From: an uncultured virus (IMG/VR IMGVR_UViG_3300025099_000015)
Lineage: Duplodnaviria > Heunggongvirae > Uroviricota > Caudoviricetes
IMG/VR virus record: IMGVR_UViG_3300025099_000015
Length of the DNA: 64,000 bases
Direction: 5' to 3' (one strand)
The position numbers were made by a program, and so were the translations under genes. Numbering within the stretch: the first letter of the stretch is position 1; each line of letters begins with the position of its first letter. A model generated the notes under the pieces. The model was given only the letters and a program-made list of their open reading frames with translations. It was not told where the DNA came from and made no database searches. Shown piece by piece: positions 3,966 through 22,088 of the stretch.

Positions 3966-4371
3966 CTTTCCAACCTTTAGGTTTGATTAGAAATCCTCCA
4001 GATACGCCTATAATCTCTTTACCATCTTTACGGGCTTGCGCTCTAAGTTTCTTATTCACATCAAACCAACCTCTCTTTTGTAGGGCTAGTAAGTAATCTA
4101 AATCACAACCTGTCATCAGACAATAAACTAATACTGCATCTTTAGGGAGTTTAGTAAAGGAGTTCCATGAATAATATTTACCATTAATACATGGTCTTTC
4201 TAATCCATTACCTTTCCTTCTACCAAAACCATCAGATTTATTTCTGATTCTGTTGTTATCTTTTAGATATTTCTTAAGTCCTTTAAGTAAGTCTGATTTC
4301 ATAAATGAATCATACTTCGCTTGTAATTCTTCTTGTTGTTTTATTTCTTGTTCATTTTTATTGTTTTGCAT
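3949..4371 (-). CDS. Hypothetical protein
   Basis: 140-aa ORF packed in the minus-strand operon. Confidence 0.6.
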   Translation of the reverse strand: MQNNKNEQEIKQQEELQAKYDSFMKSDLLKGLKKYLKDNNRIRNKSDGFGRRKGNGLERPCINGKYYSWNSFTKLPKDAVLVYCLMTGCDLDYLLALQKRGWFDVNKKLRAQARKDGKEIIGVSGGFLIKPKGWKGETNV

Positions 4372-4820
4372 TTAGATTCCTCCTTAGTTTCTATTTCGAC
4401 ATATTGTATATCTTTAACAAAGTATCCATTGTCTAATCTAGTGGTAAACTTATTTACAGGTATTACGCTGATAAACTCTAACTCAAGTCTTTTACGCTTC
4501 TCGTTATATCTATATTTCCATATGATATGTCTGTCTTTCCATCTGGTGCATTGAAACTTCTTTCTCTTTGCTTTCTTCTCTATTGCCGATGCAATCTCTA
4601 ACACATCTTCTACTTCAGCACCTGGGATTCTCTCAGTTAATCGTTCCATAAAATGGGGTGTAAACACAGCCCAAAAATAATGGAAGCCATCGTCTTTAAT
4701 CACCTTATGCATTTCTGCTTCAAATGGTTTAAACTCAGCACCACACGCTTGACATATCATTTTTCCTTTCATATCTAAATTGAACTTATTACATCCACAT
4801 TTACAATCACTAAACTTCAT
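4341..4820 (-). CDS. Zn-ribbon protein, possible RelE/BrnT-like C-terminal domain
   Basis: CKCGC...CQACG zinc ribbon, then TPHFMERLTER helix and beta-rich tail; fold call is weak. Confidence 0.45.
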   Translation of the reverse strand: MKFSDCKCGCNKFNLDMKGKMICQACGAEFKPFEAEMHKVIKDDGFHYFWAVFTPHFMERLTERIPGAEVEDVLEIASAIEKKAKRKKFQCTRWKDRHIIWKYRYNEKRKRLELEFISVIPVNKFTTRLDNGYFVKDIQYVEIETKEESKCKTIKMNKK

Positions 4821-8033: not shown

Positions 8034-9191
8034 TCAACTCCAATTTCCTTTTAGTCTTTTAATTTGCTCGCTTGCTTCATGTTTCGTTAGTTCGTCTACA
8101 TCGCCTTCATAACCTAGCCTAACTAAATACTCCTTCTGCTTTTGAGTTGCTTGTTGTTGTCTACTATCACCATCTAATATATTCCATAGTGTAGAGACTT
8201 GTCCTTCCGTCAGGGTATGTCCTGATACTATTAACTTCTTAGCATTATTTAAGAAGTTTTCTTCCCAAGTGTTTCTTCCTTGCTCTTTAATGAATGGTTT
8301 TACTCCATAGAAATCACAACATTCTACAAAAAATGGTTCAAATGTAATCTCATGCACTTTATTTGCTACTTTAATTCGCCTTTTTCTTTGTTCATTTCTG
8401 ATGTTAATCTGATTTTCCTTGTGTTTCTTTAGAGTAAATGTTCTACGTTCAACAAAATCGTCTTCTTTTTTGACAATTGCTTCTGCTTTCTCTACATTAA
8501 AGTAGAACATTAATAGGTCATTCCATAGTTTTTGGTTAGGAAAACCCTTTCTATTTATCTGTGCTTTAGGGTTATCTGGGTGATTCCACCTCCAAACTAT
8601 ACTAGCCATTTGATAATCTAAGTCCCCAAAATCATATTTAGATACCTTTCTAATGAAGGTAGTATCTCTATATAATTGTAAGTCAGAGTCATAGTGTCTA
8701 CCTTTCTTTCTTACATTAACTCGTAAGTCTAAGTCTTTAACTCTATCAAACATTAGTGTGAATTGTTCACCGTTTTCTCTCCACCAAACTTTCTGTTTTA
8801 GTGCTTCGACTCTAACATTAATCCACTCTTCAATCATGTCATCAGTTATCATGTCGTCAGACAATGAAGGATTATCTTCCTTGATTGCTCTAAAGATTAG
8901 ATATGAATTGATGTGGTCTGAACCAACACACTCTCTTGTTCCATTCTCAGTATTAAGAATCTCAAAATGATATACTATATCATGACCGCATAGACAATTG
9001 TTCTGATGTTTAGCCGCCCAATCTGGTACTGCACTTAATTGATTCCACCAAACTTCTCCGGTTGCTATCCATTCATGTTTAGCCTCTTCGTAGTTGTCTG
9101 ATACAGATAACTCAACCATATTCTGGATTAGTTTCTTGTCCCATCTTCCTGTTCCTAATTCTCTTCTCATTTCATCACCGTTACTCGACAC
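8034..9191 (-). CDS. Hypothetical protein with N-terminal Zn-binding motif
   Basis: CLCGHDI...ECVGSDHI; C-terminal ATQKQKEYL...LTKHEASEQI helical motif. True start is probably the internal MRRELG. Confidence 0.6.
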   Translation of the reverse strand: MSSNGDEMRRELGTGRWDKKLIQNMVELSVSDNYEEAKHEWIATGEVWWNQLSAVPDWAAKHQNNCLCGHDIVYHFEILNTENGTRECVGSDHINSYLIFRAIKEDNPSLSDDMITDDMIEEWINVRVEALKQKVWWRENGEQFTLMFDRVKDLDLRVNVRKKGRHYDSDLQLYRDTTFIRKVSKYDFGDLDYQMASIVWRWNHPDNPKAQINRKGFPNQKLWNDLLMFYFNVEKAEAIVKKEDDFVERRTFTLKKHKENQINIRNEQRKRRIKVANKVHEITFEPFFVECCDFYGVKPFIKEQGRNTWEENFLNNAKKLIVSGHTLTEGQVSTLWNILDGDSRQQQATQKQKEYLVRLGYEGDVDELTKHEASEQIKRLKGNWS

Positions 9192-9352
9192 TTCTTCAAT
9201 TCTATATCGTAATACTTGTAGTCTGGTAATATTCTATTACAGCAAGGGCATATCACGCCATCACCTTAACATTACAAGACTTGCATTTTGTTTTATTCAT
9301 ACTTATTATTTTTCCGCATTCGCATTGATTTATTTGCATTTTTATTTCCTCC

Positions 9353-9559
9353 TTATTCTTTCATCCATTCAAGAAATCTTTCGACATCTTCTGGTTGAAT
9401 TGTAAACACCGTTCCACTATGTAAGTGAACGTCAATATAAGTAGTTTCATAACTACCCATTACTTTACGTGGTGTTCTTTCTACTACTTCTGTATACGCA
9501 CAGATTGCACCGTGATGTATTACCGTATGGCCTCTTGCTGTTTTAAACTTATTATTCAT
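9353..9559 (-). CDS. Hypothetical protein
   Basis: ORF track 9353..9649; ATG at 9559 (MNNKFK) follows GGAGGAAGAGG and overlaps the upstream stop. Confidence 0.55.
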   Translation of the reverse strand: MNNKFKTARGHTVIHHGAICAYTEVVERTPRKVMGSYETTYIDVHLHSGTVFTIQPEDVERFLEWMKE

Positions 9560-9672
9560 TCCTCTTCCTCCTTTACTGATATTAAAAAGACTCGACAATC
9601 TGGACATAAATCCACGGCCTGTCTCATCCATTTGTCGCATTCTGGACACTTTATTTTTATTATACCTGACAT
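9556..9672 (-). CDS. Micro zinc-finger protein (38 aa)
   Basis: Manual translation MSGIIKIKCPECDKWMRQAVDLCPDCRVFLISVKEEEE with two CPxC motifs; below the ORF-track cutoff. Confidence 0.6.
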   Translation of the reverse strand: MSGIIKIKCPECDKWMRQAVDLCPDCRVFLISVKEEEE

Positions 9673-9675
9673 ATT

Positions 9676-9954
9676 CTACTCCATTGTTTCATACATTCTT
9701 TGTTCTTTCAAATGACCTGAAAGCAAGTCATCTATCTTACCGAATAACTCCTCTGAGATGCCACCTATAAGTTTTCTATTCAAAGACAGCCAAATTGTAT
9801 GACATCTGTTAATTACTACCTTTGGTTTATCATCCTCATCCATCGTTATAATGATGGGAGGCATCTCCTCATTCTCGATATAGGTAAACTCTACTACTTT
9901 TCTTTCTTGTGTCATAGCCATATTAATTACTCTCCGATACGCCGCTTTTGTCAA
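9676..9954 (-). CDS. Hypothetical protein
   Basis: ORF in the operon; start probably at MAMTQ. Confidence 0.55.
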   Translation of the reverse strand: MTKAAYRRVINMAMTQERKVVEFTYIENEEMPPIIITMDEDDKPKVVINRCHTIWLSLNRKLIGGISEELFGKIDDLLSGHLKEQRMYETME

Positions 9955-10321
9955 GCATTTCTGACAATGCTTCCTGTTGAGCCATGTTATTTCTTTGAAT
10001 CTCTAGTTCATTATCTAGGTTCTTCAATCTCATTGTAGCAGAATCTACTACTTGTGATTCTGATAGTTGAGTCCACTTTGGCATGGTATCCCATTCAATT
10101 TTCAATATTAATCCGAATGCAATACTTACTACTTTGCCTGTATTTTCGTCTACTATATTCAAGAAGGAGTTAGCCATTGGCATATTTACATATGCTAATG
10201 TTCCTTCTATTACACGGAAAGTATCTTTATACTCTTCCGCTTCCTTATACTTGTCATAAGTATAAGTTACTCTCATTCTTTGTGTGTTTTCTTTCTTCCA
10301 ACTTTTCGTCATTTTAATCAT
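9923..10321 (-). CDS. Hypothetical protein
   Basis: 132-aa ORF in the operon. Confidence 0.6.
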   Translation of the reverse strand: MIKMTKSWKKENTQRMRVTYTYDKYKEAEEYKDTFRVIEGTLAYVNMPMANSFLNIVDENTGKVVSIAFGLILKIEWDTMPKWTQLSESQVVDSATMRLKNLDNELEIQRNNMAQQEALSEMLDKSGVSESN

Positions 10322-10435
10322 TCCTTTGTTTTAATTCATTGAACCAATTATTTATTGTGCAAGTGCATGGTTCCGCACTCCATTCAGATATCGCTATCTG
10401 TTTCATTATTATACCTTTTACGCATTCTCCACATT

Positions 10436-10690
10436 TCATTCTTCCACCTCTATTTCTTTTAATTGGTAGCCATCTTCTTCTGTGTAATCATACAACTCTT
10501 TGAGGATGATAACGCCATTGAAGTCATCATAGGCGTATTTATCATCGAGGTTTTCGTATTGGTCGTGCATGGTATAGTCATCCCTACACATAGTCCAACA
10601 ATCTGTAATACTCCATAATGCATTACATTCTTTACTTAATTCTTCAATATGTTCAAGCAATTGTTTTCTTGTCATGTTTTCTAATTTCAT
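10436..10690 (-). CDS. Hypothetical acidic protein
   Basis: 84-aa ORF with ATGA overlap to the upstream gene. Confidence 0.6.
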   Translation of the reverse strand: MKLENMTRKQLLEHIEELSKECNALWSITDCWTMCRDDYTMHDQYENLDDKYAYDDFNGVIILKELYDYTEEDGYQLKEIEVEE

Positions 10691-10875
10691 TCCTCTTCAT
10701 CTCCAAATGCTTCAGCAATATCGAGTATCAATTGCTTGTGTTTTAACATATCTAATGTTCCGTTAAACCTTTTGTCGTCATCGAAGATAAACGATATTCC
10801 CAATTTACCTTTGGGTACAGGGTCTCGCAAGATTAGTATTTGTGTTCCATTATTTATTTCATCTATTATATCCAT
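10687..10875 (-). CDS. Hypothetical protein
   Basis: 62-aa ORF preceded by GAGG. Confidence 0.55.
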   Translation of the reverse strand: MDIIDEINNGTQILILRDPVPKGKLGISFIFDDDKRFNGTLDMLKHKQLILDIAEAFGDEEE

Positions 10876-11056
10876 TTTAATTCCTCTGTTATATTATTGA
10901 GTTAGGAAGATAAGACCTTCACATTGCAGTGTGAAGTTGTCAGTGTCGCCTAGTCCTAGTTGCATTTTGATACAACCTATGAGACTTCAAATAACCATTT
11001 GATATACCAACATTATTCATCTTTTTAACGGACAAACCTAACTCAACGTGTGAGTT

Positions 11057-11614
11057 TTACTCTCTCATATTTATGAGTAATAATACAAGATAACCTATCA
11101 AGTCTTTAATCACATCTTCATCTGATTCCATACTATCATTACCTTGCACAATTCTATTAATTTTATCATCAATTCTTACCTTGATTTGTTCAGTTGTGTC
11201 AGCCGTAGAAAAGACTCTAACTGGCTGTAAAGCGGAGTCGCCATACTGAACATTTTTAGCCAAAAGCATTGTCTTAATTTCATCCATAAGTCCTGCTATT
11301 TTGACCTGGTTCTCACCAAGCACTTGCCTGTCTTTTATAGCCTTTGTTTGTGTGTTTGGTAAAGCACCTTGTTTCAACTTCTTTTGTGTTGTTACTGTCT
11401 TTGGTGTATAGTTTAAATTATTCATCATAATATGTTTCCTAGACACTTTATCTTTACCATATCTCTTAGGTAAAATACCTAACCCTTGTAGGTGGTAAAT
11501 CTTAGAAGTTACTTTACTTTGATTAACATTTAACTCTAATGCTATGTCCTTTGTTTTCATACCTTCTTTATATCGTTTAATTATTTTCTTTTCTTCTTTC
11601 TTGGTTAATACCAT
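11057..11614 (-). CDS. N-terminal HTH fused to DUF1599-like (nucleotide-modification-associated) domain
   Basis: GMKTKDIALELNV HTH; C-terminal KNVQYGDS...VRIDDKINRI...EDVIKDLIGYLVL pattern typical of DUF1599. Confidence 0.65.
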   Translation of the reverse strand: MVLTKKEEKKIIKRYKEGMKTKDIALELNVNQSKVTSKIYHLQGLGILPKRYGKDKVSRKHIMMNNLNYTPKTVTTQKKLKQGALPNTQTKAIKDRQVLGENQVKIAGLMDEIKTMLLAKNVQYGDSALQPVRVFSTADTTEQIKVRIDDKINRIVQGNDSMESDEDVIKDLIGYLVLLLINMRE

Positions 11615-11820
11615 TTCTTTTATTCTCCTTTTTGTGTTAAAAGCAAGCGCGCAATGTCTTCTTGGACAGAATAATACAGCAGTAGGGCAAGAAGCATTTC
11701 TAACCTTATTCTAATCCCATTGGAAACACATTTTGCACCAGATACTCTATGATAACTGATACAATTTAACTTGTTTTGACTGTCATTTCTAATTTCTAAC
11801 GTTTCTAACCCCCCATCAGG

Positions 11821-11848
11821 GTAGGTAGGTAGGTAGGTAGGTAGGTAG
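11821..11848 (+). repeat. (GTAG)7 perfect tetranucleotide tandem repeat
   Basis: Read directly from the sequence. Confidence 0.95.
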
Positions 11849-12601
11849 TTGTTATATATATTAGTTAGAAATATTATAATATTATAAATATATAATTTTA
11901 ACATACTTACTATACCCTAACCCACTCATTTTGAGCAAACTCATTTCCAATCCAAATTAGAAATTAGAAACGTATTCGATAAACTATCATATCATATAGG
12001 ATATGCCATATTGATATGTGTATAAGATAAGAGATATATTATACATAGATAGCCTTCTCGGTTCATTAATCCTAAACTATGCTTATTCACTGTATAATAA
12101 ATTAAGCCATTAAATGTAATAGGTATAAATAGGCCATTGGCGGAATGCGTGTTTAACAGGCCATTAGATTTTAATTGCCGCCGACATTACAATCAAATCG
12201 AGTTAGTATATATACTGCGCGGCACCACCTCGATGCCCTCGCTCTACAACACGCTATTCTTTTTTTATTACTCTACAACCATATGGTGGCAGAGAGTGTG
12301 CATTAAGCACAAGAGAATCGTCCTTGTGCATACCCTAAAAAACCCCTCGGGTAAGTCCTAAACCTTTTCATTCCATTCATTATGGACTACCATATGGTAG
12401 CAGATATTCAGGAGATGATATGTTATGAACGACAAAGAATAAGAATATCTGCGTATCCACAAATTGAGGCACATCTTTAGTGTGACCATATGGTTCTAAA
12501 CTTTGTCCATAGAACCAGAAGTTTTGGAGACAAGAATAGGTATATTTCAACCTATCCTTGCCTACCGTTGTCGCCGACCAAAACTAAAGTTCAGAAGGCG
12601 A

Positions 12602-13111
12602 TTATTCCTCCTCCTGAACTTCGGTATAAGATGCACATGCATCTAAGCCGTCAGTAGTACCATCCCATTCTTTGGATTTGAATAATTCTCTAGCAGTTTG
12701 CTTGGCTTTAGCCACTAGAGTATTTGCGTAGTCATCGGCATCTAAAAACACAGGTGCGCCTTTAGATTTACCATGCTTTCGTAACAGGGGTTGTGAATAA
12801 GTCTGAGTAGTGGTGAAAAACAGATGAGCCGCTTCTCTAATTTCTGCACAAGCAGTTTCAACAACCATACTTGCCTCAATAGACAATAGTCCTTGATTAC
12901 CTCTTCTCCAGACTACTTGACCTGATGGGAAATCTTTCAACATCGCTTTTACTGATGCCGCTAGTGCGGTTCGGTTTGCGACATTATTATCTCCTGTCTC
13001 CATTAGCATGCTTACTAATGTTTTCACATCAATAGGTATTTCACTATCAATATCCCCATCTAAGCATGAGGCTACTTTATTCTTTACATTATTCCAATTA
13101 CTTTCTTCCAT
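12602..13111 (-). CDS. Orphan protein, cassette paralog 1
   Basis: 169 aa; shares MEE/D-x-x-WN start, HGKS-x-G, D/E-YA, WDGT and terminal QEEE with 15305..15844; has its own promoter-like motif. Confidence 0.8.
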   Translation of the reverse strand: MEESNWNNVKNKVASCLDGDIDSEIPIDVKTLVSMLMETGDNNVANRTALAASVKAMLKDFPSGQVVWRRGNQGLLSIEASMVVETACAEIREAAHLFFTTTQTYSQPLLRKHGKSKGAPVFLDADDYANTLVAKAKQTARELFKSKEWDGTTDGLDACASYTEVQEEE

Positions 13112-13158
13112 TTTAATTACCTTCCAATAATCCTTTCTTCCCTTTAGTTAGGTCAGCG

Positions 13159-13217
13159 ACATTATAATCTAACATAGTTAGTATATAAGGGGTTCTTGAC
13201 AAAGTCGAACCATATGG
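13159..13217 (-). promoter_or_regulatory. Conserved archaeal-type promoter (cassette 1)
   Basis: Minus strand reads CCATATGG-ttcg-ACTTTGT...CCTTATATACTAACT-N7-ATTATAATGT; near-identical to 13589-13651 and 17089-17149. Confidence 0.7.
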
Positions 13218-13588
13218 TAGGCTTGCTGAGAAATTAGAGATATATGGCATTAAGCCATCTCCTCTGCAAAACGTAAGTGGGGATACCTCATTTGTGTGGA
13301 GAAATCTATCATGAACAAATAATGTATTTCACGGTATTACTAAGGTAGCACTATTATTGCGCTACCTTATTCATACTGTTATGTTCATACATTACCTTTT
13401 ATCACTTCATGACCCTCCATATGGTTGTAGCGAAGGGATTGTTTCATTCCATCAAGTCTTCAAAGGATGAATACATATACTCTTCTGATATTTCTTTATC
13501 AGGCGTATTCAGCCAACGAAGCGCAGATGCAATGATTACAATACCAAGTGTAAGCCCTAAAATCTGGTTCTGTCCAATCTACGATGAA

Positions 13589-13651
13589 CCATATGGTAGG
13601 ACAACTTTGTTAAGGACTACCTTAAATACTAACTAATATCTATTATAATGT
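13589..13651 (+). promoter_or_regulatory. Conserved archaeal-type promoter (cassette 2)
   Basis: CCATATGG-taggaca-ACTTTGT...CCTTAAATACTAACT-N7-ATTATAATGT. Confidence 0.7.
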
Positions 13652-13772
13652 AGACAGCCCACCAATGCTTGACCGCTATCCAACAACGTGATGATGCCAT
13701 GAGACAATCTAAACGTATTTATTGGAAGTATAGCCACTTGGTTAAGGGCTGTCTCACCCTTTGGTGATTTTA

Positions 13773-13976
13773 ATGAATAACGAAACTACTACTATTATAC
13801 AACAAGTAAATGCCCCTAAATATGCTATCAAATTAAAGCATATGAAATCAGGACAGAACATTGTCCTCTCTATTGAGGAATTGAAGGTATCTGGTGATGA
13901 CCTTTCTATGGTTATGTCCGAATTAAGACAGGCTTTAGACGAATATATGTCTATAACGGGGGAATCTGAAGATTAA
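13773..13976 (+). CDS. Small hypothetical protein (67 aa) in cassette 2
   Basis: ATG at 13773 preceded by GGTGA ribosome site; ORF track 13761..13976. Confidence 0.65.
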   Translation: MNNETTTIIQQVNAPKYAIKLKHMKSGQNIVLSIEELKVSGDDLSMVMSELRQALDEYMSITGESED

Positions 13977-15196
13977 CTTCAGGTTCTATAGACAAAGTTT
14001 AGAACCATATGGTGTTAGATAAAACGATACTGTGTAGATTATAATCTAGTCAGTTGGCATTAGGCCAAGTCTAGCACCAGAGGGGCGGATGTTAGGACGG
14101 GTAGATGATAAGAATACACTCAAAGACAAAATATATTTTTACAAGGTGCAAAAGGGGGCTTTACAGAGTTTTAACCGATAATATTACGCAGTGGCTTAAT
14201 GCCACTAAATGCTAAATTAATATCATCTGAATCTGCAAAACCCCACTCTTTGCACTCTCAGAAAAATATATTTTTCTTCAGTTCCATCTTTACACTACCA
14301 TATGGTTGATTTTACATAATCTACGAAAATGGAAACATTTGCGTAGTTTAGTTAAGCGGTTAGCGGAAGTCAATCCCATTTTTGGCAATCGGGAAATGTC
14401 TCGTAGTATTAATCGGTCAGAGCCGCCCTAGACCTCTATACTACGTTCCTTGCTTAATGCAACCATATGGTTATACATTGTTAGTGGAGGAGGTTTCCTC
14501 TCGGAACGCCATGTATAATCCTCATTTGGGGGTTTATGTTTTACCCTGTGCTTAATGCACACCCATATGGAAGTAGCGTTGTTGTAATGTGTCATTAAGA
14601 ACACTTGCTAGGCAAGGACAACGTTAGCGGTTTCCACAATGGGGTAAGTTATAGACCAGTCTATTAACAACCATATGGACAAGAGAAAATACGCATTAAG
14701 CGTAAATAACGTGGTTTAGGGCTTGACCCCATTCAAAAATGGGGCATGGTCTATACATTATACAGTTTACAATGTTCACGGTATAAGTAATGTAGCACTA
14801 TTACTGCGCTACCTTATTGATACCTAAATGTTCACATCAAACTGTATTTCAATTATGACCAACCATATGGTTGATAAACGTATGTAAGTGGCATTAAGCC
14901 ACATCTTGAGGACAGTTTACAATCCCAAGATATCGGATATTGTACCAACTAAGCCGACAACATGTCTTGACGGATGCTTCTCATCGTTACTCTACGACTA
15001 GACGATGACAAGTCTCCTTACAACCCATAACGTCTATCGTTTTACACTACCATATGGGTGTAACCCTTAAGGCACGAATGGCTAATTCTTTCGCTCAATC
15101 ACAATTATATATTCAACGTATTGCTAGGACTTAATGTCCTTACTAATATATAATTACTCTTCGCTACAAGCAATTACCAATTACCACTTCGTTGTT

Positions 15197-15257
15197 CCAT
15201 ATGGTGTGATACTTTGTGGATGAACACCTTAAATAGTAAGTTAAAATGACTGTAATG
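15197..15257 (+). promoter_or_regulatory. Conserved archaeal-type promoter (cassette 3)
   Basis: CCATATGG-tgtgat-ACTTTGT...CCTTAAATAGTAAGT-N7-ACTGTAATG. Confidence 0.65.
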
Positions 15258-15304
15258 AAGGTGGCCTAACACCTAGTTATTTATATAACTTGGAGGAATA
15301 AATT

Positions 15305-15844
15305 ATGGTAGATTACAGTATGGAAGATAACACATGGAATGCGAAGAAAGAATTGATTGCAGAATGGTTCGATGCGAACCCTCAACATGAGGGTAGACGA
15401 GTCATTGCTGATGGACTATTTGCGATAGGTGACATGCAAAGCGACCTTCGTAAGAAGCATTGGTCTAGCATTAGTGGGATATTTGCTGATTTGAGCAATT
15501 CCCCTATTGGCGGCGGTAGAAGGTCATTGATGACAACCGCTATTAAATCGGATTTTGATACATACAAAGCAGATTATTGGCAGTATCAATATGACGTAGC
15601 ATACAATCAAGAACGCGGTTTTGCTAAAACACACGGTAAATCCGGCGGTGTCCTCTATAGAGATATGGATGATGGCCGCACAGAATACGCTGACAATCAA
15701 ACTAAGGTTATGTCCTTATTTTTGAGTCAATGCTACAATGCGTATGCTAAGAATGACGTATCAAAGCGTTATTTCTGGGATGGGACTTTCACACTAGAAG
15801 GTTATCCTAATGTAGTAGATAATGGGGGACAAGAAGAAGAGTGA
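15305..15844 (+). CDS. Orphan protein, cassette paralog 2
   Basis: 179 aa, GGAGG ribosome site; MEDNTWN, KTHGKSGG, EYAD, FWDGT, QEEE shared with 12602..13111. Confidence 0.8.
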   Translation: MVDYSMEDNTWNAKKELIAEWFDANPQHEGRRVIADGLFAIGDMQSDLRKKHWSSISGIFADLSNSPIGGGRRSLMTTAIKSDFDTYKADYWQYQYDVAYNQERGFAKTHGKSGGVLYRDMDDGRTEYADNQTKVMSLFLSQCYNAYAKNDVSKRYFWDGTFTLEGYPNVVDNGGQEEE

Positions 15845-16669
15845 TTAGGTGATAGGCCACCTTCACCCTTCTTTTTGTCCCTTTTTTCAGGTTCACGTTC
15901 TTTTAACAAAGTATTACCACTCCCACCATATGGTTGCAGTTCGTGATAAACACGGCCAACGGCAGTAGTTTATCTAACGATACAAATACATAGTTTGCCC
16001 CAGGTCTTAAACTTTATGTGGAGAGAGAGCATTGTCAAATCTACTTCGTAGCAGACTTAATGTCCTTTGTATGACTAATGCCCCCCATCCATATGGTGTT
16101 AGGAAGAACTATACTTATTAGTTCATAGAAACTAAGAAGTGGCGTTAAGCCAAGTCTAACACCAGATAACCTGAAGTCTCCCGCCCTCAAGACGGGTAGA
16201 TGATAAGAATCACTAGAATAAATAATATTTATGCGGGACATTTGTGTAGCGTATACGTGCTTTCCCTATACGCATTATGAATACAAGGGCTAAATGCCCT
16301 ATACTGTATTATTCATAATACTAGAAAAGCACCGTAATCGCACACACCATACCCGCATAAATATATTTATCCTGTTCCTTTCTTTACACTACCATATGGT
16401 GTCATAACGTAGTATAGATAGTCCCCAATACGTTTGGGGTCGGCCTAAGTCTTCCCACCACGGTTCTAGGCATAATGCCTGAGACTAGACTCCTACCATA
16501 TGGAACAATGAAATGGTTTTTTGTGATTTTTGAAATGGTGAAGGTTTTTTAACATGGTATAGTGCATTTAGCACTTGATTACAATTAATGTGAAAAAGCG
16601 TGAAGCCATGAAATAATAACGAAAAAGTCTCCTTAAGGGCTACACCCATATGGGTGTATACTTTGTTAA

Positions 16670-17090
16670 TAAACCCACAAGGTCGAGCGTTGTTTATAAC
16701 ACCTGCAACCTACTAACGCACTAATGGCTAGCCTTTCGGTTGGATGCACTGGAATAACTTACGGGATTTCCACTTCTATTTCCCACTCGTTTATGTGGTC
16801 TAGTTTTTTATTTTATGAGTCCATTAAACTATCGTTTGGCTCAATCCTTGAAACTAGAAAAACAGGGGAGTGAGTGGGTTGATATTTCTACCGTCCACCA
16901 ATTCTGAATGGGTATCTATATTCGCATGTAGCATTCACCCCAGAAAACTTACCATAGAAGAGTTACCTTCCTTTCACTGACCGACTTATTATTATCGGCC
17001 TCGTTGTTCCACCACAGAACATGGCATTCCATTAGCCCTAGATAACGGACTTATTCTGGCACACTCATGTCGAGTTACGTTTCCTCGACA
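16670..17090 (-). ncRNA. Putative ~420-nt structured non-coding RNA (cassette 4)
   Basis: Downstream of a conserved promoter, no ORF of 60 aa or more in the track, several stems (ATGTCGAG/CTCGACAT, CTAATGG/CCATTAG, CCCACTC/GAGTGGG, CTAGTTT/AAACTAG). Ends are approximate. Confidence 0.5.
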
Positions 17091-17149
17091 TTATAATAGA
17101 TATTGATTAGTATTTAAGGTGTTATACCACAAAGTATAACACCATATGG
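17088..17149 (-). promoter_or_regulatory. Conserved archaeal-type promoter (cassette 4)
   Basis: Minus strand reads CCATATGG-tgttat-ACTTTGT...CCTTAAATACTAATCAATATCTATTATAATGT, almost identical to 13620-13651. Confidence 0.7.
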
Positions 17150-18959
17150 TTGTAATAGTATCTAGGTAATAGAACTATAAGGCATTAAGCCGTTCTATGG
17201 ATACTATGCTAACAACCAGAAGGGGAGACACCTGGGGAGGAGACGACATGGGGTAGATGTTATTGTTTAGTATACTGTAACTCTAATGTCTCTTCCAACT
17301 GTAAGGCTAGTCCAAATAAACATTGGCTTAATGCCAATACATTACTTACCTGAACCAGTTTAGGTTCAGCGCGTATGTATGCTGTTAAATATTCTCCTAG
17401 CCTTGAAAGTTTCCGAAGACTTAGGTAAAGTAACCTACACTTTAACACTACCATATGGTTATATTCGGGGAGATATAGGAGAAGACGGTTGAATATCAGA
17501 TGTTCTTGGAGTGCGCCTTCGCACTCACTAGAACCATGCATTAAGCATGATGATATCGTCTTCTTCCTATATAGAGTCAATAATAACCACATTTGTGGTA
17601 TTGATAATAGTTCCCCTGACTTTACTCCGTTTAGGCAAATTGCGGAACATGGTTGCACGGTAAGTATTACTTAAGCCGCCACATACAACTGTGCTTAATG
17701 CACTATTCGTTTTATGTATGTTTGCGTGATAATACTTACCAGTTCACCTCGTTCCTCCATTGCCTAAACAGAGTAAACTCAGATATAACTTAACACTACC
17801 ATATGGTTCGCATTCTTAGTAGATATGCGTTTAGCAATAAACAACGGGAGTGGTTGGTGTGTCGCTAAGAATTGTGACCGCATTGGGGATAATCTAAACT
17901 ACGTTTATGATACCATATGATTGTATTTGTTTGAGCGTAGCGAGTTCAATCTAATAGATTGGGACTCACCTTTTGTTCGGTCAACGTCCACTCAGGCCGT
18001 TTCACGTTGCTTCATTACCGACCTCCCTTACAACAGTGTGCTTAATGCACAATCATATGGTATTAAATTACATCCTTCAATATTTTTAGTAACGTAGTGG
18101 TAAAAGTGTTGTGATGAAACATTCAGTAAAAGTGAAGCGTTTCAATGCTTTTAACTAGAAATAGCAGGATGATGTAACAGCGAAGCGTTTCATATCCTTA
18201 AGGCTGCTTAACGCTACGCTACACCCATATGGTTGCATAAAAGATGCAGATAGATGGGAGTGTATCTCCAGCATTCGTGTGCAGTGGTGAAAGGTGATGC
18301 ATTAAGCATCAGTGAAACGTCTATTGAAACTACGCACGGAGAATGCTTGGTAGATATCACACCCAACTACTGATATTTTATGTGATTAAACCCGACCCTT
18401 AAGGTGTGATTCATTCACACTGCTTTAACCTCCTTCTTCTGGTCTCCCCTCCTCTCTACTATTGCTTAACGCAACTATACGTTATTCCGAGGGAGAGTAA
18501 GACCATCATCAGTGGTTAACGCTTTACGTTTCTCCCACCATATGCTTTGTCCTTCGATTTTTTTTTATTTTAATTGACATAAGATTTTGTCTTTAGAAAC
18601 CCTAAATTAATATAGTGTTACTCATGTGGGTCTAATAGAAGGCTGTTGAGCATCAATGTATGAATCGCTATTAATAATTAATTCGCGGTGCATCAAGGAT
18701 ACAAATGAATCAATAAAAGAATACACATTAACCACCAATGCTCAAATAAACCCTCACTACAGGTAATGAATTAATTCTTATTCTGGGAATGGACAAAAAA
18801 GAGCAAAAAAATAAACGCAAGTGCCAGAAAAATAACACCCCAAAAATAGGATAAAAAAGGTCTAAAAAATATGCCCCAAAAAAATGGTGAGAAAATGAGA
18901 ATGCCGAATATGTTCTATAATCAAGGTAGTATGTACCATCCTGTAAAGGGGGTTTTACA

Positions 18960-19214
18960 ATGACTGATTGTTTTAAACATATTCAAAATCTTATTAAGAC
19001 AGATAATGAAGCGTGGTATGTGAATAATGCACATATAGTAAATGACCGTTCCACTTTATACCAATGGTTAGATGATAATCAACACCTAACTACTGATAAT
19101 CCCTCTATGAAAAATATACCTAAAGGACATGTTAATCGAGTAATCAAGATTATGAAAGATTTAATGGTTATTTGGGAAGAATGTGAAACAAACAATATAC
19201 AGGAGTTGATATAA
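18960..19214 (+). CDS. Hypothetical protein, first gene of the plus-strand arm
   Basis: 84-aa ORF after a GGGGG ribosome-site-like run. Confidence 0.6.
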   Translation: MTDCFKHIQNLIKTDNEAWYVNNAHIVNDRSTLYQWLDDNQHLTTDNPSMKNIPKGHVNRVIKIMKDLMVIWEECETNNIQELI

Positions 19215-19673
19215 ATGTGCAGTAATTGTGATGATGAAGTCAAAAAATCAGAAGATTGGAAAGAAATACTCAAAGAAGATGAAGTAGAAAAAAATTGGGG
19301 AAACAGAAGCCCAGGACAAGGCTATGGAACAAGACAAACACATAATGAAAGTCAGTATGGTTCAGATTACGAAGGTTTTGGAGAAGATGAAATACAAGAA
19401 AGAACGGAACGGTATCATGAAGGAGTAAAATGTTTTTATTGTGATGAAGATGCAGAATGGAAATGCACTAATGGTAAACATGGTGGTTGTAGATATGAAG
19501 GTGATAGATTTGATGGTGTTCAAGTATGTGGTGCAAATAGCGATTTTGCTGATGATAGATATCCTGAAGGCCATAAAACTTATGCTAATAGAAACAATAG
19601 TGGACATGCATGGGTTCCTATTGAAGAGTTCTCACATGATGACGAATGGGGATACAATCAGGATAAAAGATAG
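19215..19673 (+). CDS. Hypothetical acidic Cys-containing protein
   Basis: 152 aa, CFYC...C motifs, internal DWKEILKE. Confidence 0.6.
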   Translation: MCSNCDDEVKKSEDWKEILKEDEVEKNWGNRSPGQGYGTRQTHNESQYGSDYEGFGEDEIQERTERYHEGVKCFYCDEDAEWKCTNGKHGGCRYEGDRFDGVQVCGANSDFADDRYPEGHKTYANRNNSGHAWVPIEEFSHDDEWGYNQDKR

Positions 19674-19833
19674 GAGGCGATAATATGCAATCAATGTTAG
19701 AGTGTCATAATCATGATAAAATAATGGATTCTTTGTTTGAAGAAGATATAGTAGAGAATAGACAATCAGATATTACTATTGAAGGCTACAATTCTTTTTG
19801 GACTTGGATTGGTAAAAAAATAGGTTGGTTAAA

Positions 19834-20836: not shown

Positions 20837-21171
20837 TGAGTTGGATGGCTATTTTAAAAAATGTTGATTTAGATGAAGACAATTGCTGTGAAGCATTGGC
20901 TACAGATTTAGAACTACTATTTGAAAATCTTATTTTTAATGACTTTGTGAGTTTTATTAAAAAGAATAAAAATAATTGTGAGGTATTAGTTCCTGAAGTA
21001 GAAAGAATATTGGGTGAAGGTATGTCGTATTTCAAAAGAAAATATATAATTGATTCACAGATACTTTCTGTTGCTGATGAAGGCGAAATATATCAAGTAA
21101 TAAAAGACATGTATGCTAAATATTTAGATTGTAATGAGGATTTACTATCAATGGGAGAGGACATGAGATGA
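20836..21171 (+). CDS. Hypothetical protein (W-x-x-I-x-K family)
   Basis: MSWMAILKN. Confidence 0.65.
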   Translation: MSWMAILKNVDLDEDNCCEALATDLELLFENLIFNDFVSFIKKNKNNCEVLVPEVERILGEGMSYFKRKYIIDSQILSVADEGEIYQVIKDMYAKYLDCNEDLLSMGEDMR

Positions 21172-22088
21172 AGTGGTTTAACATAATTAAAGACTTTAAG
21201 TATTCTCATGGTAAATATGCCGATGTTGATTCACAAGGTTTACAAGGTTATCGAGGAGTGCCTAAAGAAGCGGCAGGGTTTTCACGCGGAAACATAGCAA
21301 GTATTAATTTAAGTGCTAATGCATGGAAAAATATGTTGTATGATAAAGACGGTAATTACGAACAAGAAAATGAAGAACAAGTAATAAGAGAAATGAGCAA
21401 TACATTGAGTCATGAATATGCACATGTGTTATTCCATAAACTTTCTGGGTATACTGGTTTAAAATCTGAAATAGGTGGAGTTATGTCAGATATAATGCTT
21501 GGATTACTATTAGAGATTGATGACAAGAATCTGTTTGATTTAGATGAAAAAACTAGCAAGTTATTAGCGGCGTGTAAAAAACATGCAGCAACAATTATAC
21601 TTGATGAATTATATGCAGGGTATGCAGGTAAAAGTGTTGAAGGAATAAGCAGAATAATAATAGATAAATACAAAGATTATTGGCGAGACGATTTTAATAA
21701 TACTCTTCGGAGAACAAAATCTAGTGTAATTAATAGACTACAAGAGGCAATAGGAGAAAGTGAAGAGTTTTCTCACATGGAAAAGTTAATTATAGACATA
21801 AGATTCCCTAATGTAGTAGAATACATGGGACAAATTACGCAGTTAATGGAACGTGCTTGGTCTGAAACTGTAGACTTTATTTATAAACGGATGCTGGATG
21901 TTCAACAAAAGAGGTTTTACTTAGGCACACTACCTGAAAGAGAAAACACTACCATAGGAGAAATGACAGTTATGATTAGTAGATACATAGACAACGCAGG
22001 TTATGAGGATATTCAAAGATATATTAATGGTGAAGATTTAAACGATAAAGTGCTTGAAGAAATTGGTTTTAGTAGGAGGAGAGGATAA
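21168..22088 (+). CDS. Putative zincin-like metallopeptidase (W-x-x-I-x-K family)
   Basis: MKWFNIIKD; TLSHEYAHVLF HExxH motif with downstream DELYA Glu. Confidence 0.55.
   Translation: MKWFNIIKDFKYSHGKYADVDSQGLQGYRGVPKEAAGFSRGNIASINLSANAWKNMLYDKDGNYEQENEEQVIREMSNTLSHEYAHVLFHKLSGYTGLKSEIGGVMSDIMLGLLLEIDDKNLFDLDEKTSKLLAACKKHAATIILDELYAGYAGKSVEGISRIIIDKYKDYWRDDFNNTLRRTKSSVINRLQEAIGESEEFSHMEKLIIDIRFPNVVEYMGQITQLMERAWSETVDFIYKRMLDVQQKRFYLGTLPERENTTIGEMTVMISRYIDNAGYEDIQRYINGEDLNDKVLEEIGFSRRRG

Follow-up and report, generated by a model that had tools for sequence, protein, structure and literature searches.

We propose that positions 12279-18545 of the window, the 64-kb stretch of viral DNA analysed here, form a recombination-shuffled array of accessory modules in a magrovirus, most closely resembling the PeSL cassettes of T4-type phages. 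We give this reading a probability of roughly 55%. It draws on the exclusivity of a short palindromic site, the anatomy of the modules, breakpoints that fall at the site, RNA contigs from three cassettes and structural conservation among the hairpins. Magroviruses are tailed viruses infecting marine group II archaea, and the window is one, judged by its portal and by its ligase, which lies within the head-gene block.

Position of the array in the genome

The array occupies the gap separating two divergent gene arms. Both coding strand and GC skew switch at this point, the cumulative GC skew has its minimum there, and the G+C content of the array is 0.38-0.39 against 0.33-0.35 for the flanks. 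The array and its borders are as follows.

12279-18545, unstranded: whole array of 25 units, with 23 exact and three one-mismatch copies of CCATATGG (consensus ACCATATGGT)
12182-12219, minus strand: left-arm promoter-like box TATATACTAAC-N10-TGTAATGTCG, of box family D7
18538-18620, plus strand: right edge, with the degenerate site CCATATGC, then TTTG, then the right-arm TATA-like box CCTAAATTAATATA
11057-11614, minus strand: flanking 185-aa gene, with an N-terminal HTH and a C-terminal phrog_1485 domain

Box family D7 has members at 12182, 13157 and 17086, the left-arm box thus sharing its family with boxes of the cassettes. By the right edge, a low-depth RNA contig from run X3 begins at 18648. 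The 185-aa gene anchors the position of the array in all relatives; no search that we made identified its product as a recombinase. Sites were found only upstream of this gene in 10 of 10 viral loci and in 29 of 41 metagenome loci, the remaining 12 having at most 565 nt upstream of the gene and no sites. Downstream sites were seen in none of the 41 metagenome loci. The place of the array within contigs varies among relatives, lying at 31.7-35.8 kb of 96 kb in G004 and close to the contig end in some others.

The palindrome marks the unit boundaries

All 23 exact copies of CCATATGG in the window fell within 12279-18232; 100 dinucleotide shuffles gave an expectation of 0.80 and a largest value of 3, with 23 reached in none. 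The count in the first-pass annotation was borne out (23 of 23 inside the array), as was its remark that the 8-mer is confined to this region, the rest of the window containing 0 exact copies. The three one-mismatch copies it reported are present at 17913 (CCATATGA), 18053 (TCATATGG) and 18538 (CCATATGC) and carry the right end of the array out to 18545; a fourth, CCATATTG, sits at 12006, just to the left. The spacing, given as about 95-730 bp, measured 96-729 bp, and the 18-nt palindrome noted at 16641-16658 is real. A genome-wide count of the 8-mer, also proposed there, placed 70 of 71 copies from five related records inside the homologous array, the single outlier falling within a 655-aa open frame.

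Exact copies form 23 of the 26 unit boundaries in the window, and site copy number ranges from 6 to 23 among arrays. Across 219 distinct contexts from 25 arrays the site logo has T at +1 in 83% and A/T at +2 in 87%, and the conserved core common to most boundaries extends over only 10-12 bp. We also observed a second motif, GCATTAAGC, which had been missed, in 13 exact and 7 one-mismatch copies on both strands of the array. Our observations agree with the earlier view that the array is neither CRISPR nor TIGR. A triple-site pattern search of species-representative cellular genomes found no comparable array.

Gene and RNA cassettes

The region had been described as nearly gene-free, a description that does not hold, as three conserved ORFs and a manA-class RNA are present. 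Four of the 25 units are cassettes with their own TATA-like box.

12486-13217, minus strand: gene cassette ORF169, ORF at 12602-13111
13589-14012, plus strand: gene cassette ORF71, ORF at 13761-13976
15197-15933, plus strand: gene cassette ORF179, ORF at 15305-15844
16646-17149, minus strand: RNA cassette (unit 19), manA-class structured RNA, Rfam match at 16867-17090

The cassettes are laid out as site, hairpin, TATA-like box, cargo, hairpin, site. In all four the box lies 21-25 nt inside the site: a minus-strand TTATATA at 13182-13188 in ORF169 (21 nt), TTAAATA at 13622-13628 in ORF71 (25 nt), TTAAATA at 15229-15235 in ORF179 and a minus-strand TTAAATA at 17111-17117 in the manA cassette (24 nt). 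The 3' ends carry the site and a CAAAGT element without a TATA box, and in the ORF169 cassette ACTTTG/CAAAGT adjoins both sites. The ORF179 cassette has GGAGG 9 nt ahead of its ATG, and its positions 15256-15275 are complementary to 15846-15865 (20 nt). Homologues of ORF169 occur within arrays at 10 of 23 loci and those of ORF71 at 11 of 23. None of the 27 homologues of ORF179 has a name, and its AF2 model (pLDDT 87) matched no PDB fold at E <= 0.001.

RNA contigs from four marine metatranscriptome runs cover three of the four cassettes, at 12551-13146 (ORF169) and 15265-15845 (ORF179), each in 4 runs, and at 16680-17074 in the manA cassette. Word depth was 166-611 for manA and 4-52 for the ORF cassettes, making manA the best-covered transcript of the array. 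These data lend no support to the first-pass suggestion of a single precursor cut at CC-AUAU-GG: the gene units have their own TATA-like boxes, the contigs match single cassettes, and no window-aligned piece spans a site. Contigs cannot show RNA ends, so that suggestion may, if improbably, still apply to the hairpin units.

The manA match (RF01745) scored 54.3 bits against a gathering score of 55.2 (E 4e-13) over model positions 1-192 of 192, with the GAAUAA block, the GUGGUG block and the pseudoknot all matched. In the relative L019 the match reached 84.7 bits, above the gathering score. The available text of Weinberg et al. 2010 (PMC2864571) describes the motif from 5'-UTRs in marine metagenomes, T4-like cyanophages and two gamma-proteobacteria. 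The unit 19 cargo resembles that motif in fitting the full model. It differs from the description available there in that, instead of lying in a 5'-UTR, it has a stand-alone cassette of an archaeal virus to itself.

Hairpin modules

The other 21 of the 25 units are gene-less hairpin modules.

12279-12493, unstranded: hairpin units 1-2 (12279-12397 and 12390-12493)
13210-13596, unstranded: hairpin units 4-5
14005-15204, unstranded: hairpin units 7-13, including the two-hairpin unit 14005-14305
15926-16653, unstranded: hairpin units 15-18, including the two-hairpin unit 16089-16399
17142-18545, unstranded: hairpin units 20-25, including the three degenerate sites

The fold-back character claimed for the units held up against shuffled controls. 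For 21 units of at most 420 nt, folded on both strands with both flanking 8-mers and compared with 40 dinucleotide shuffles, z was below -2 in 40 of 42 folds (mean z -4.4); unit 17451-17806 gave z of -10 and -13. Folded without the 8-mers, the units gave a mean z of -3.09 with 13 of 21 below -2, and length-matched segments of the coding arm a mean of -0.55 with 3 of 21 below -2 (Mann-Whitney p 1.6e-4 versus units). The hairpins cited earlier as examples, 14011-14078 with 14100-14299 and 17457-17588 with 17597-17800, appear in the minimum-energy folds.

Most hairpin units share an invariant C-ATTAA-G pentaloop on a 5-bp apical stem. The stems covary: over 56 distinct hairpins the three pairs outside the GC clamp were formed in 89%, 86% and 73%, compared with 43%, 40% and 40% when partners were shuffled, with 3-6 pair types per position. 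Read inward from the nearer site, the loop sequence is GCRTTAAGC in 48 of 49 cases. The two-hairpin family retains a hairpin of 124-129 nt at a paralogue identity of 0.60-0.71, close to the shuffled 0.56-0.60, and has A5TATAT5 boxes at the hairpin base. G-U pairs were similar in number on the two strands overall (92 vs 100) and strand-biased in single units, for example units 7 and 16 (6 vs 26). No Rfam family was found in the hairpin units at E <= 1.

Units are rearranged between relatives

Alignment across relatives, proposed in the first-pass annotation as a check, showed that whole units have been gained, lost, inverted and reordered, the breakpoints falling at CCATATGG. These comparisons rest on metagenome assemblies; for the window arrangement two assemblies agree at 99.96% identity over 20.5 kb. 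The flanks of L018 are collinear with the window at 92-95% identity (window 9004-12286 and 18537-19746), and within the array its units are permuted, with six mapped units inverted and only 3 of 17 adjacencies kept. Unit 4, for instance, is both inverted and moved. We observed no rearrangement in the aligned flanks. Among 86 HSP ends from L030 (the metagenome-collection copy of the L018 contig), L032 and L034, 49 fell no more than 5 nt from a site, whereas 7.4% of random positions would do so.

Individual events have the same form. The 96-bp unit 2 is missing from L029, site to site; the ORF71 cassette is inverted in place in L032; and between L005 and L010 a two-unit block is inverted and one cassette inverted and relocated. 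Both orientations were seen in 8 of 40 unit families. L018 has 3 units out of 22 without a counterpart in the window, L032 has 11 of 18 and L034 has 13 of 18, and the cassette order ORF169, ORF71, ORF179, manA is the same in the window, L018 and L032. From these comparisons the hairpin modules appear to turn over much faster than the gene cassettes. In other lineages the arrays are mostly collinear among the relatives available, and in most lineages consist mainly of gene cassettes.

The exact boundaries (23 of 26) and the unrearranged flanks point to a site-directed process rather than random microhomology, although selection alone could hide breakpoints elsewhere.

A model for the array

Every module is bounded by the 10-bp palindrome ACCATATGGT with an inward-facing hairpin inside each boundary, and four modules are autonomous expression cassettes for three small conserved proteins and one manA-class RNA. 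In our model DNA would be exchanged at the palindrome, where modules may be excised, inserted, inverted or replaced, and the symmetry of the palindrome core would allow a module to lie either way round. We infer that the exchange is the work of a dimeric protein, encoded by the virus or its host, that recognises the palindrome, perhaps along with the hairpin beside it, and breaks and rejoins the DNA at that point. The array would then be a bay in which genes and RNAs for host interaction diversify. Given their faster turnover, the hairpin modules would behave like small non-autonomous mobile elements targeting the palindrome.

The search for a recombining enzyme counts against this reading. 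Tyrosine integrase (PF00589) and Y1/HUH transposase (PF01797) were found in 0 of 5 related records and serine recombinase (PF00239) in 0 of 4, one of the records searched being rated 100% complete. Pfam searches of 73 window ORFs, two of them inside the array, gave no recombinase and no HUH nuclease. Known tyrosine and serine recombinases use sites longer than 10-12 bp, and the short core also weighs against the shuffling array. Magroviruses do encode a RadA-like recombinase and nucleases, according to the available text of PMC5434244, so homologous or microhomology recombination could yield the same pattern.

Alternative explanations

It is possible, if less probable, that the palindrome is primarily regulatory. 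A dimeric transcription factor of the virus or its host would bind it as an operator or upstream site and control the accessory genes and both arm promoters, and ordinary homologous or microhomology recombination would shuffle the units as a side effect. The fixed distance of 21-25 nt to the TATA-like box in 4 of 4 cassettes fits such an operator equally well, the site adjoins both arm promoters too, and the neighbouring gene encodes an HTH protein, with the GcrA Pfam family PF07750 in some relatives. The HTH part is, however, not kept in distant relatives that retain the site. The RadA-like ATPase and nucleases of magroviruses (PMC5434244, in the part available) would supply the recombination, the same kind as that proposed for PeSL cassettes in the available text of PMC2839356; the TATA-plus-inverted-repeat motif of halovirus HGTV-1 is a further precedent (PMC3950731, in the part available). 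The largely collinear arrays of most lineages, mainly gene cassettes, also suit regulation. Yet 21 of 25 window units have no recognised promoter and are bounded by the same exact palindrome, the cassette 3' ends carry the site and CAAAGT without a TATA box, and 23 exact copies in 26 is unusual exactness for an operator set. The 10-12 bp common to most boundaries offer little for recombinase-driven homologous exchange, and 14 of 17 adjacencies differ despite collinear flanks 92-95% identical. Protein binding, raised in the first-pass annotation, is retained as this regulatory reading; the control of a genome end, raised with it, is disfavoured, as is an origin-like role, because the G+C of the array exceeds that of its flanks.

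We consider it improbable that the hairpin units encode small structured RNAs serving as guides, decoys or scaffolds, whether released from a long precursor by cutting at CCAUAUGG or transcribed from promoters of their own, with the pentaloop making an RNA-protein or loop-loop contact. Stems that covary beneath an invariant loop, hairpin length and shape conserved while sequence is free, and the strand-biased G-U pairs of units such as 7 and 16 are consistent with it. The A5TATAT5 boxes could serve as TATA box and T-run terminator, and one abundant structured RNA, manA, does come from the array. Loop polarity is nevertheless mirror-symmetric about each unit (48 of 49), so that a single transcript would carry two different loops, AUUAA and UUAAU, a pattern better suited to DNA ends in inverted orientation or to transcription running outward from each site. 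The strands also fold about equally well overall, no Rfam family matched, and the separate promoters of the gene cassettes show that the array is not a single operon. Least probable of all is that the array serves as a replication origin or controls packaging or ejection, in which case the palindromes would be initiator iterons. The skew minimum at the divergence of the arms, the many copies of one short palindrome and the arrays near contig ends would fit; gene orientation alone accounts for the skew switch, however, and the higher G+C, the expressed genes, the copy number of 6 to 23 with order scrambled between close relatives, and the variable place in contigs, as in G004, argue against it.

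Comparison with known systems

In the hyperplastic regions of T4-type phages, PeSLs (promoter-early stem-loops) serve as mobile regulatory cassettes (Arbiol et al. 2010, PMC2839356). As far as the available text of that paper goes, in both systems a repeated promoter and stem-loop motif fences small non-essential genes in a plastic region of a tailed virus, and close relatives differ by insertions, deletions and replacements located at the motif. Here, unlike the sigma-70 promoter of PeSL, the common element pairs an exact 10-bp palindrome with a TATA-like box of archaeal type; the palindrome stands at both ends of each unit, inverted units occur as well, and in this lineage gene-less hairpins sharing an invariant pentaloop, undescribed in that text, make up most of the units. 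A similar TATA-plus-inverted-repeat motif precedes ORFs in halovirus HGTV-1, according to the available part of PMC3950731.

The suggestion of cassettes with a palindromic core, also made in the first-pass annotation, comes nearest to our reading, with whole units gained, lost, inverted and reordered at CCATATGG in relatives; its named families, integron- or REPIN-like, do not fit, with neither a tyrosine integrase nor a Y1/HUH transposase found in the records searched. Like integron cassettes, the units form a row of discrete cassettes beside a fixed flank, are gained, lost and reordered at the boundary, and have hairpin-folding boundary elements with a conserved base and free stem and loop. 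They differ in carrying their own promoters and in occurring in both orientations, and no IntI-type tyrosine recombinase was found (0 of 5 records). An attC site is imperfect and 57-141 nt long, with R and L boxes, whereas the boundary here is a perfect palindrome of 8-10 bp.

The pdif (Xer-site) modules of Acinetobacter plasmids and shufflons such as R64 Rci/sfx are likewise bounded by short recombination sites, common to neighbouring modules, and multiple inversions reorder their segments. An Xer site consists of two arms around a spacer, about 28 bp in all, against the 10-12 bp conserved here. Shufflons act within one coding region with a dedicated tyrosine recombinase, an enzyme not found in the records searched. 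REP/BIME elements, REPINs with RAYT transposases and MITEs with target-site preference are non-coding too, short and palindromic or fold-back, and multiply in clusters with inverted ends. In contrast to these systems, the related records have no Y1/HUH transposase (0 of 5), and the present elements are limited to one viral locus and always abut one exact palindrome.

The palindrome is confined to the array

The 8-mer palindrome core CCATATGG, hereafter the site, occurs 23 times in the 64-kb window, all within 12279-18232, and the count thus bears out the first-pass annotation, which had noticed no copy elsewhere. Dinucleotide shuffles of the window gave a mean of 0.8 copies and a maximum of three. 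One-mismatch copies at 17913, 18053 and 18538 prolong the series, and the spacing of the sites divides the array (12279..18545) into 25 units of 96-729 bp, numbered here from left to right. When 219 distinct site contexts, drawn from 25 related arrays, are compared, conservation centres on the 10-bp consensus ACCATATGGT with an A/T one position further out, and there is little positional conservation outside it. In five related virus records 70 of 71 copies of the motif sit in the homologous array, the single copy outside lying within a 655-aa open frame. A second motif, GCATTAAGC, is present in 13 exact and seven one-mismatch copies, on both strands and in the array only. The array is real, departs strongly from random expectation and is conserved.

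The array is also neither CRISPR nor TIGR, as had been stated from the sequence. Arrays of those kinds consist of fixed-length direct repeats and short unique spacers, whereas this one has neither, being built of an 8-10-bp palindrome and self-complementary units of 96-729 bp. No cas-like Pfam match was found among the ORFs of the window. Viral contigs were scanned for triplets of sites spaced about 100 bp apart, and 11 of the 16 loci so obtained looked irrelevant. Ten of these 11 have few, mostly evenly spaced sites; L007, the only one of the ten whose context was examined, looks like a coding repeat. The eleventh, L014, has five sites, some at uneven spacing. The same triple-site pattern was found at 99 loci in cellular genomes (one per species), and none of the 40 site-richest, which were inspected, was array-like; nearly all of them were short-period tandem repeats.

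The genome fits the magrovirus description

Genes for a terminase, portal, prohead protease, major capsid protein and tail tube are present in the window. In a search of 50,697 phage records its portal matched only haloarchaeal tailed viruses (~31% identity, E 1e-59) and one Methanomassiliicoccales virus, and on account of this kinship we take the host to be archaeal. Two further ORFs are of interest here:

43479-46010, an 843-aa protein with an ATP-dependent DNA ligase domain, inside the head-gene block between the portal and prohead-protease genes
37232-38533, a 433-aa ORF with a weak HNH match, between terminase and portal

A halovirus-like head-tail module with an inserted ATP-dependent ligase and a nuclease gene is described as the hallmark of the magroviruses, which are reported to be abundant and widely distributed in the surface waters of the ocean (PMC5434244). 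Judged by its gene content, with a structural module, an inserted ligase and an HNH-like ORF, the window belongs with them. To our knowledge no magrovirus or magrovirus host has been brought into culture, and the functions of most magrovirus genes are not known. Genes run on the minus strand to the left of the array and on the plus strand to the right, and the GC skew flips sign there.

Units are rearranged at the sites between relatives

Relatives were gathered via the left neighbour of the array, a gene for a 185-aa protein (11057..11614, minus strand). The site lies only upstream of this gene in 10 of 10 viral loci and in 29 of 41 metagenome loci; none of the 41 has a site downstream, and the remaining 12, without sites, have at most 565 nt of upstream sequence. 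Two relatives, the locus L027 and the virus record G001, share the arrangement of the window at 99.96-100% identity. Four other related loci (L018, L029, L032 and L034) revealed reordering, inversion, gain and loss of units at the sites, in line with the suggestion in the first-pass annotation that cassettes recombine at a palindromic core. The flanks of L018 are collinear with the window at 92-95% identity, and 3 of 17 unit adjacencies are retained. In signed window numbering its first to eleventh units are 10, 3, 16, -11, 15, -8, -1, 6, 7, 12 and 13, and its twelfth to twenty-second are 14, -18, 19, 24, 5, 25, 21, new, new, -4 and new. Against three relatives, 16 of 86 alignment ends fell inside a site and 49 within 5 nt (3% and 7% at random).

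In L029, with flanks 89-95% identical, the 96-bp unit 2 is absent and the gap runs from site to site, while 11 of 18 units in L032 and 13 of 18 in L034 have no counterpart in the window. One gene cassette, ORF71, is inverted in place in L032. The order of the four cargo cassettes is the same in the window, L018 and L032, and the hairpin modules are therefore the fast-moving part. Within a low-GC lineage, comparison of L005 with L010 showed a two-unit block inverted and one cassette both inverted and relocated; in other lineages the arrays are mostly collinear, with single cassettes replaced. Grouping 166 units from 21 arrays gave 40 families, eight of which were found in both orientations.

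Four units are expression cassettes

Units 3, 6, 14 and 19 carry ORF169, ORF71, ORF179 and a manA-class RNA respectively, and are built to one plan. Read along the cargo, the 5' half consists of CCATATGG, 4-7 nt, ACTTTG, about 10 nt and (CC)TTAAATA or TTATATA, and the 3' half of the cargo, CAAAGT, 6-13 nt and CCATATGG. The site, a hairpin and the TATA-like box are present in all four, the box 21-25 nt from the site, and the gene cassettes lie on both strands, each with its own box. A hairpin that runs from the GG of the site, with CTTTG in its loop, forms at least five contiguous pairs at 84 of 153 ends (45 of 153 when shuffled), which gives it modest support. A box of the same promoter-like family at 12182-12219 points left, to the left arm.

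Four marine metatranscriptome runs, whose libraries may include DNA, yielded RNA contigs at a likeness of at least 90%. These span 12551-13146, 15265-15845 and 16680-17074, that is, three of the four cassettes. Every group of contigs begins a few tens of nucleotides past a TATA-like box, so that TTAAATA/TTATATA lies at about the archaeal TATA distance from the contig starts. The cassette promoters appear to be of the archaeal TATA type rather than sigma-70, a type that can only be inferred because a TATAAT-like hexamer is also present downstream of the box. No window-aligned RNA piece crosses a site and each matches a single cassette, though contigs cannot prove RNA ends. The hairpin units were not covered by RNA contigs, which is not evidence of silence, since the sampled strains may differ in their units and inverted repeats assemble badly. 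The runs share 5-9% of the sampled words of the stretch, no basis for assigning a habitat.

The manA cassette was the best-covered stretch in the four runs, with a word depth of 166-611 compared with 4-52 for the ORFs, and in two of them (X2 and X3) its contig extends a further 151-207 nt, unmatched to the window, left of 16680. The RNA and its relatives are placed as follows:

Window 16867-17090, minus strand, manA-class RNA (Rfam RF01745)
L018 3601-3828, manA-class RNA
L032 1242-1470, manA-class RNA
L019 6978-7184, manA-class RNA

The RNA of unit 19 matched RF01745 over positions 1-192 of 192 with 54.3 bits (E 4e-13), the gathering score being 55.2; the scores were 50.2 bits in L018, 43.8 in L032 and 84.7, above threshold, in L019. 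The manA motif was originally described as a 5'-UTR element from marine metagenomes, cyanophages and two gamma-proteobacteria (PMC2864571). In contrast, it is here the lone cargo of a stand-alone archaeal-virus cassette.

Of 23 related loci, 10-11 have homologues of the three ORFs in their arrays, among them lineages of 44% G+C. ORF169 and ORF179 are weakly similar (E 1e-4) and have in common an N-terminal W-N and an HGKSxG motif. ORF179 has 27 homologues, none of them named, and its predicted structure (pLDDT 87, confident) returned no PDB fold match at E <= 0.001 in Foldseek. A 20-nt inverted repeat, 95% complementary (15256-15275 and 15846-15865), flanks ORF179 in the promoter/terminator region and coincides with the stop points of the RNA contigs; the ends of the ORF179 mRNA could pair through it. 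The cassette proteins at 12602-13111 (minus), 13761-13976 (plus) and 15305-15844 (plus) have acidic C-terminal tails (...VQEEE, ...GESED and ...GQEEE), which echo acidic micro-peptides of relatives. In lower-GC relatives, those units that measure about 100 nt contain conserved micro-ORFs, each 6-10 codons long:

L005 8001-8296, micro-ORF units
L010 8001-8204, micro-ORF units
L002 8001-8112 and 9336-9441, micro-ORF units
L008 8001-8230, micro-ORF units
L022-L024 and L061, micro-ORF units

The peptides read MFDDDE, MFFDDDE, MFDCDE, MYCDDE, MFDEED and MKYTSDEDDE. Their ORFs are preceded, at a distance of 3-11 nt, by a GGAGG-like motif, and the codons vary synonymously. Acidic micro-ORFs made up 16 of 33 array candidates and 0 of 12 in the window outside its array, and none was found in the window's own lineage.

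The gene-less units are hairpin modules

The first-pass annotation had seen long imperfect hairpins in the units it examined, and folding of the other 21 units against controls bears this out. Folded with both flanking 8-mers, these units reached z < -2 relative to dinucleotide shuffles in 40 of 42 strand-folds (mean -4.4), and the unit interiors alone gave a mean z of -3.09 compared with -0.55 for length-matched coding controls (p 1.6e-4). Paired palindromes close each hairpin unit. Most units contain an apical hairpin of the form N3-GC-ATTAA-GC-N3', with a C-ATTAA-G pentaloop. Among 56 distinct instances, taken from four arrays, the three pairs beyond the GC clamp form in 89%, 86% and 73%, against 43%, 40% and 40% after partner shuffling, with 3-6 pair types per position. 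The loop is polar: relative to the nearer site, GCRTTAAGC reads inward in 48 of 49 cases, and the units therefore have mirror-image ends.

One family, of about 300 nt, has two hairpins; its end boxes are conserved, and so is a hairpin of 124-129 nt with 37-45 pairs. Paralogue identity within this hairpin (0.60-0.71) is near the shuffled level (0.56-0.60), and compensating changes are seen by eye at the stem base of orthologues. Overall both strands fold about alike, with 92 versus 100 G-U pairs over the 21 units and a null summed strand bias. In the paralogous units 7 and 16 there are 6 versus 26 G-U pairs (3 versus 12 in 14005-14305 and 3 versus 14 in 16089-16399), a bias that favours the minus strand; such skew of single units is suggestive only. 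The hairpin-module component has no described counterpart.

Several smaller features were observed in these units. Self-complementary A5TATAT5-like boxes stand at both feet of the long hairpin (14129-14142, 14264-14277 and 16359-16372), also in the homologues of the two-hairpin units in L018 and L032, and could be a TATA box with a T-run terminator or a mere AT-rich stem extension. A conserved 17-mer, GGGTAGATGATAAGAAT, lies upstream of them; it matched four further contigs, which have 0-1 sites each and turned out to be unrelated. Because TTAA, the core of the loop, is self-complementary and CATTAAG exactly complements CTTAATG, any two pentaloops (e.g. those of the hairpins at 12300, 14194, 17538 and 17693 in the window) could in principle pair loop to loop, in cis or trans. 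In L003 (4586-7148) the site-proximal hairpins bear CACTAAGCGTG in place of GCATTAAGC, 15-19 nt from the site, perhaps a variant of the pentaloop element peculiar to that lineage. tRNA-like CCA ends, C/D-box sRNAs, BHB splicing motifs, protelomerase sites and restriction avoidance of CATATG were dropped, as no test spoke in their favour.

Comparison with known systems and the nature of the exchange

The closest known kind is the PeSL cassette. As in PeSLs, a composite promoter and stem-loop motif precedes small genes of unassigned function in a plastic region, and indels and replacements between close relatives fall at the motif. A terminator role of the stem-loop and mini-circles arising between adjacent motifs likewise belong to the PeSL kind. 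PeSLs differ in having a bacterial sigma-70 early promoter, where the magrovirus cassettes have what appears to be an archaeal-type box. Integrons, REPIN/RAYT, shufflons and Xer modules each depart from the array in at least one defining feature tested. An integron has IntI beside its array and promoterless cassettes read from a common Pc, whereas the magrovirus array adjoins an HTH/phrog_1485 gene and its cassettes are each self-promoted. Set beside attC, where conserved core sites lie at the foot of an imperfect hairpin, the array gives a mixed picture: each hairpin unit closes on two palindromes with free stems, but the core is perfectly palindromic and many units are gene-less. An Xer/dif site is about 28 bp long, with two conserved arms and a spacer, whereas the magrovirus sites conserve only the 10-bp core and the A/T at +/-2.

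A recombinase or HUH nuclease, which the first-pass annotation had proposed to look for, was not found in the records and ORFs searched. Tyrosine recombinases (PF00589), the family sought for integrons and for shufflons of the Rci type, were found in 0/5 related records, one of these records being rated complete. The Y1/HUH transposase used by REPIN/RAYT and IS200/IS605-type elements (PF01797) was likewise found in 0/5, and serine recombinases (PF00239), as in Hin-type invertases, in 0/4 (G001 left out). Pfam searches of 73 ORFs of the window, two of them inside the array, gave none of the three. The 185-aa neighbour belongs to a large family (1,128 matches) and has an N-terminal HTH that is not conserved in distant relatives; a few members carry the GcrA family.

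Sequence comparison points to a site-directed activity at the palindrome, because the boundaries are almost always exact copies, the common sequence at most boundaries is only 10-12 bp, and rearrangement is limited to the sites, with flanks that are collinear over tens of kilobases. We consider a recombination-shuffled module array of the PeSL kind the best reading, in which the mechanism of exchange and the function of the hairpins are what we infer. The main rival, that the palindrome is a transcription-factor operator and that the virus's own recombination genes do the shuffling, would explain the cassettes well, with their fixed distance from site to TATA box, and operator-plus-recombination precedents have been proposed for PeSLs (PMC2839356) and for a motif in HGTV-1 (PMC3950731); it explains the 21 promoter-less units poorly, and we regard it as less likely, though a serious contender. 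It is also conceivable, though we would call it doubtful, that the gene-less hairpin modules make up a new class of mobile DNA element, one that is site-specific and belongs to archaeal viruses. On this view they would be non-autonomous fold-back units whose ends are read through the invariant C-ATTAA-G pentaloop, recognised on single-stranded or extruded DNA. An undescribed enzyme, unlike tyrosine, serine or HUH recombinases, would insert them at ACCATATGGT in either orientation, and the same machinery would move the gene and RNA cassettes. If so, the archaeal virosphere would have a promoter-bearing, orientation-free counterpart of the integron.

On the preferred reading of a shuffled, PeSL-like array, the locus marks where and how magroviruses vary fastest, swapping small genes, an abundant structured RNA and DNA/RNA hairpins as whole modules at an exact palindrome. 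Together ACCATATGGT and the pentaloop give a sequence handle on an accessory gene pool in metagenomes, on new recombination or DNA-binding activity in archaea, and on the role of the manA RNA outside bacteria. Should a dedicated enzyme exist, the symmetric 10-bp sequence it targets would be attractive as a tool. The main texts of the magrovirus papers searched do not mention such repeats, none of the literature searched pairs magrovirus with cassette, and the six papers containing CCATATGG in an archaeal-virus and palindrome context look unrelated by title.

Other features of the window

At E <= 1 Rfam matched only manA and, by chance, one microRNA in the window, which has no tRNA or tmRNA; the related contig L002 has a tRNA gene (14547-14618, 64 bits) about 4 kb past its array. 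No relatives were found for the right-flank protein at 21168-22088, and the protein atlas yielded no usable lead for 19215-19673 or 9923-10321. A match to the T4 endoribonuclease RegB at 4341-4820 (minus strand) bears on RNA processing, but lies below threshold (16.5 bits, where the cut-off is 27; E 0.009) and is probably due to chance. A ThiF-family (E1-like) protein is encoded at 1070-1690 on the minus strand (E 6e-19).
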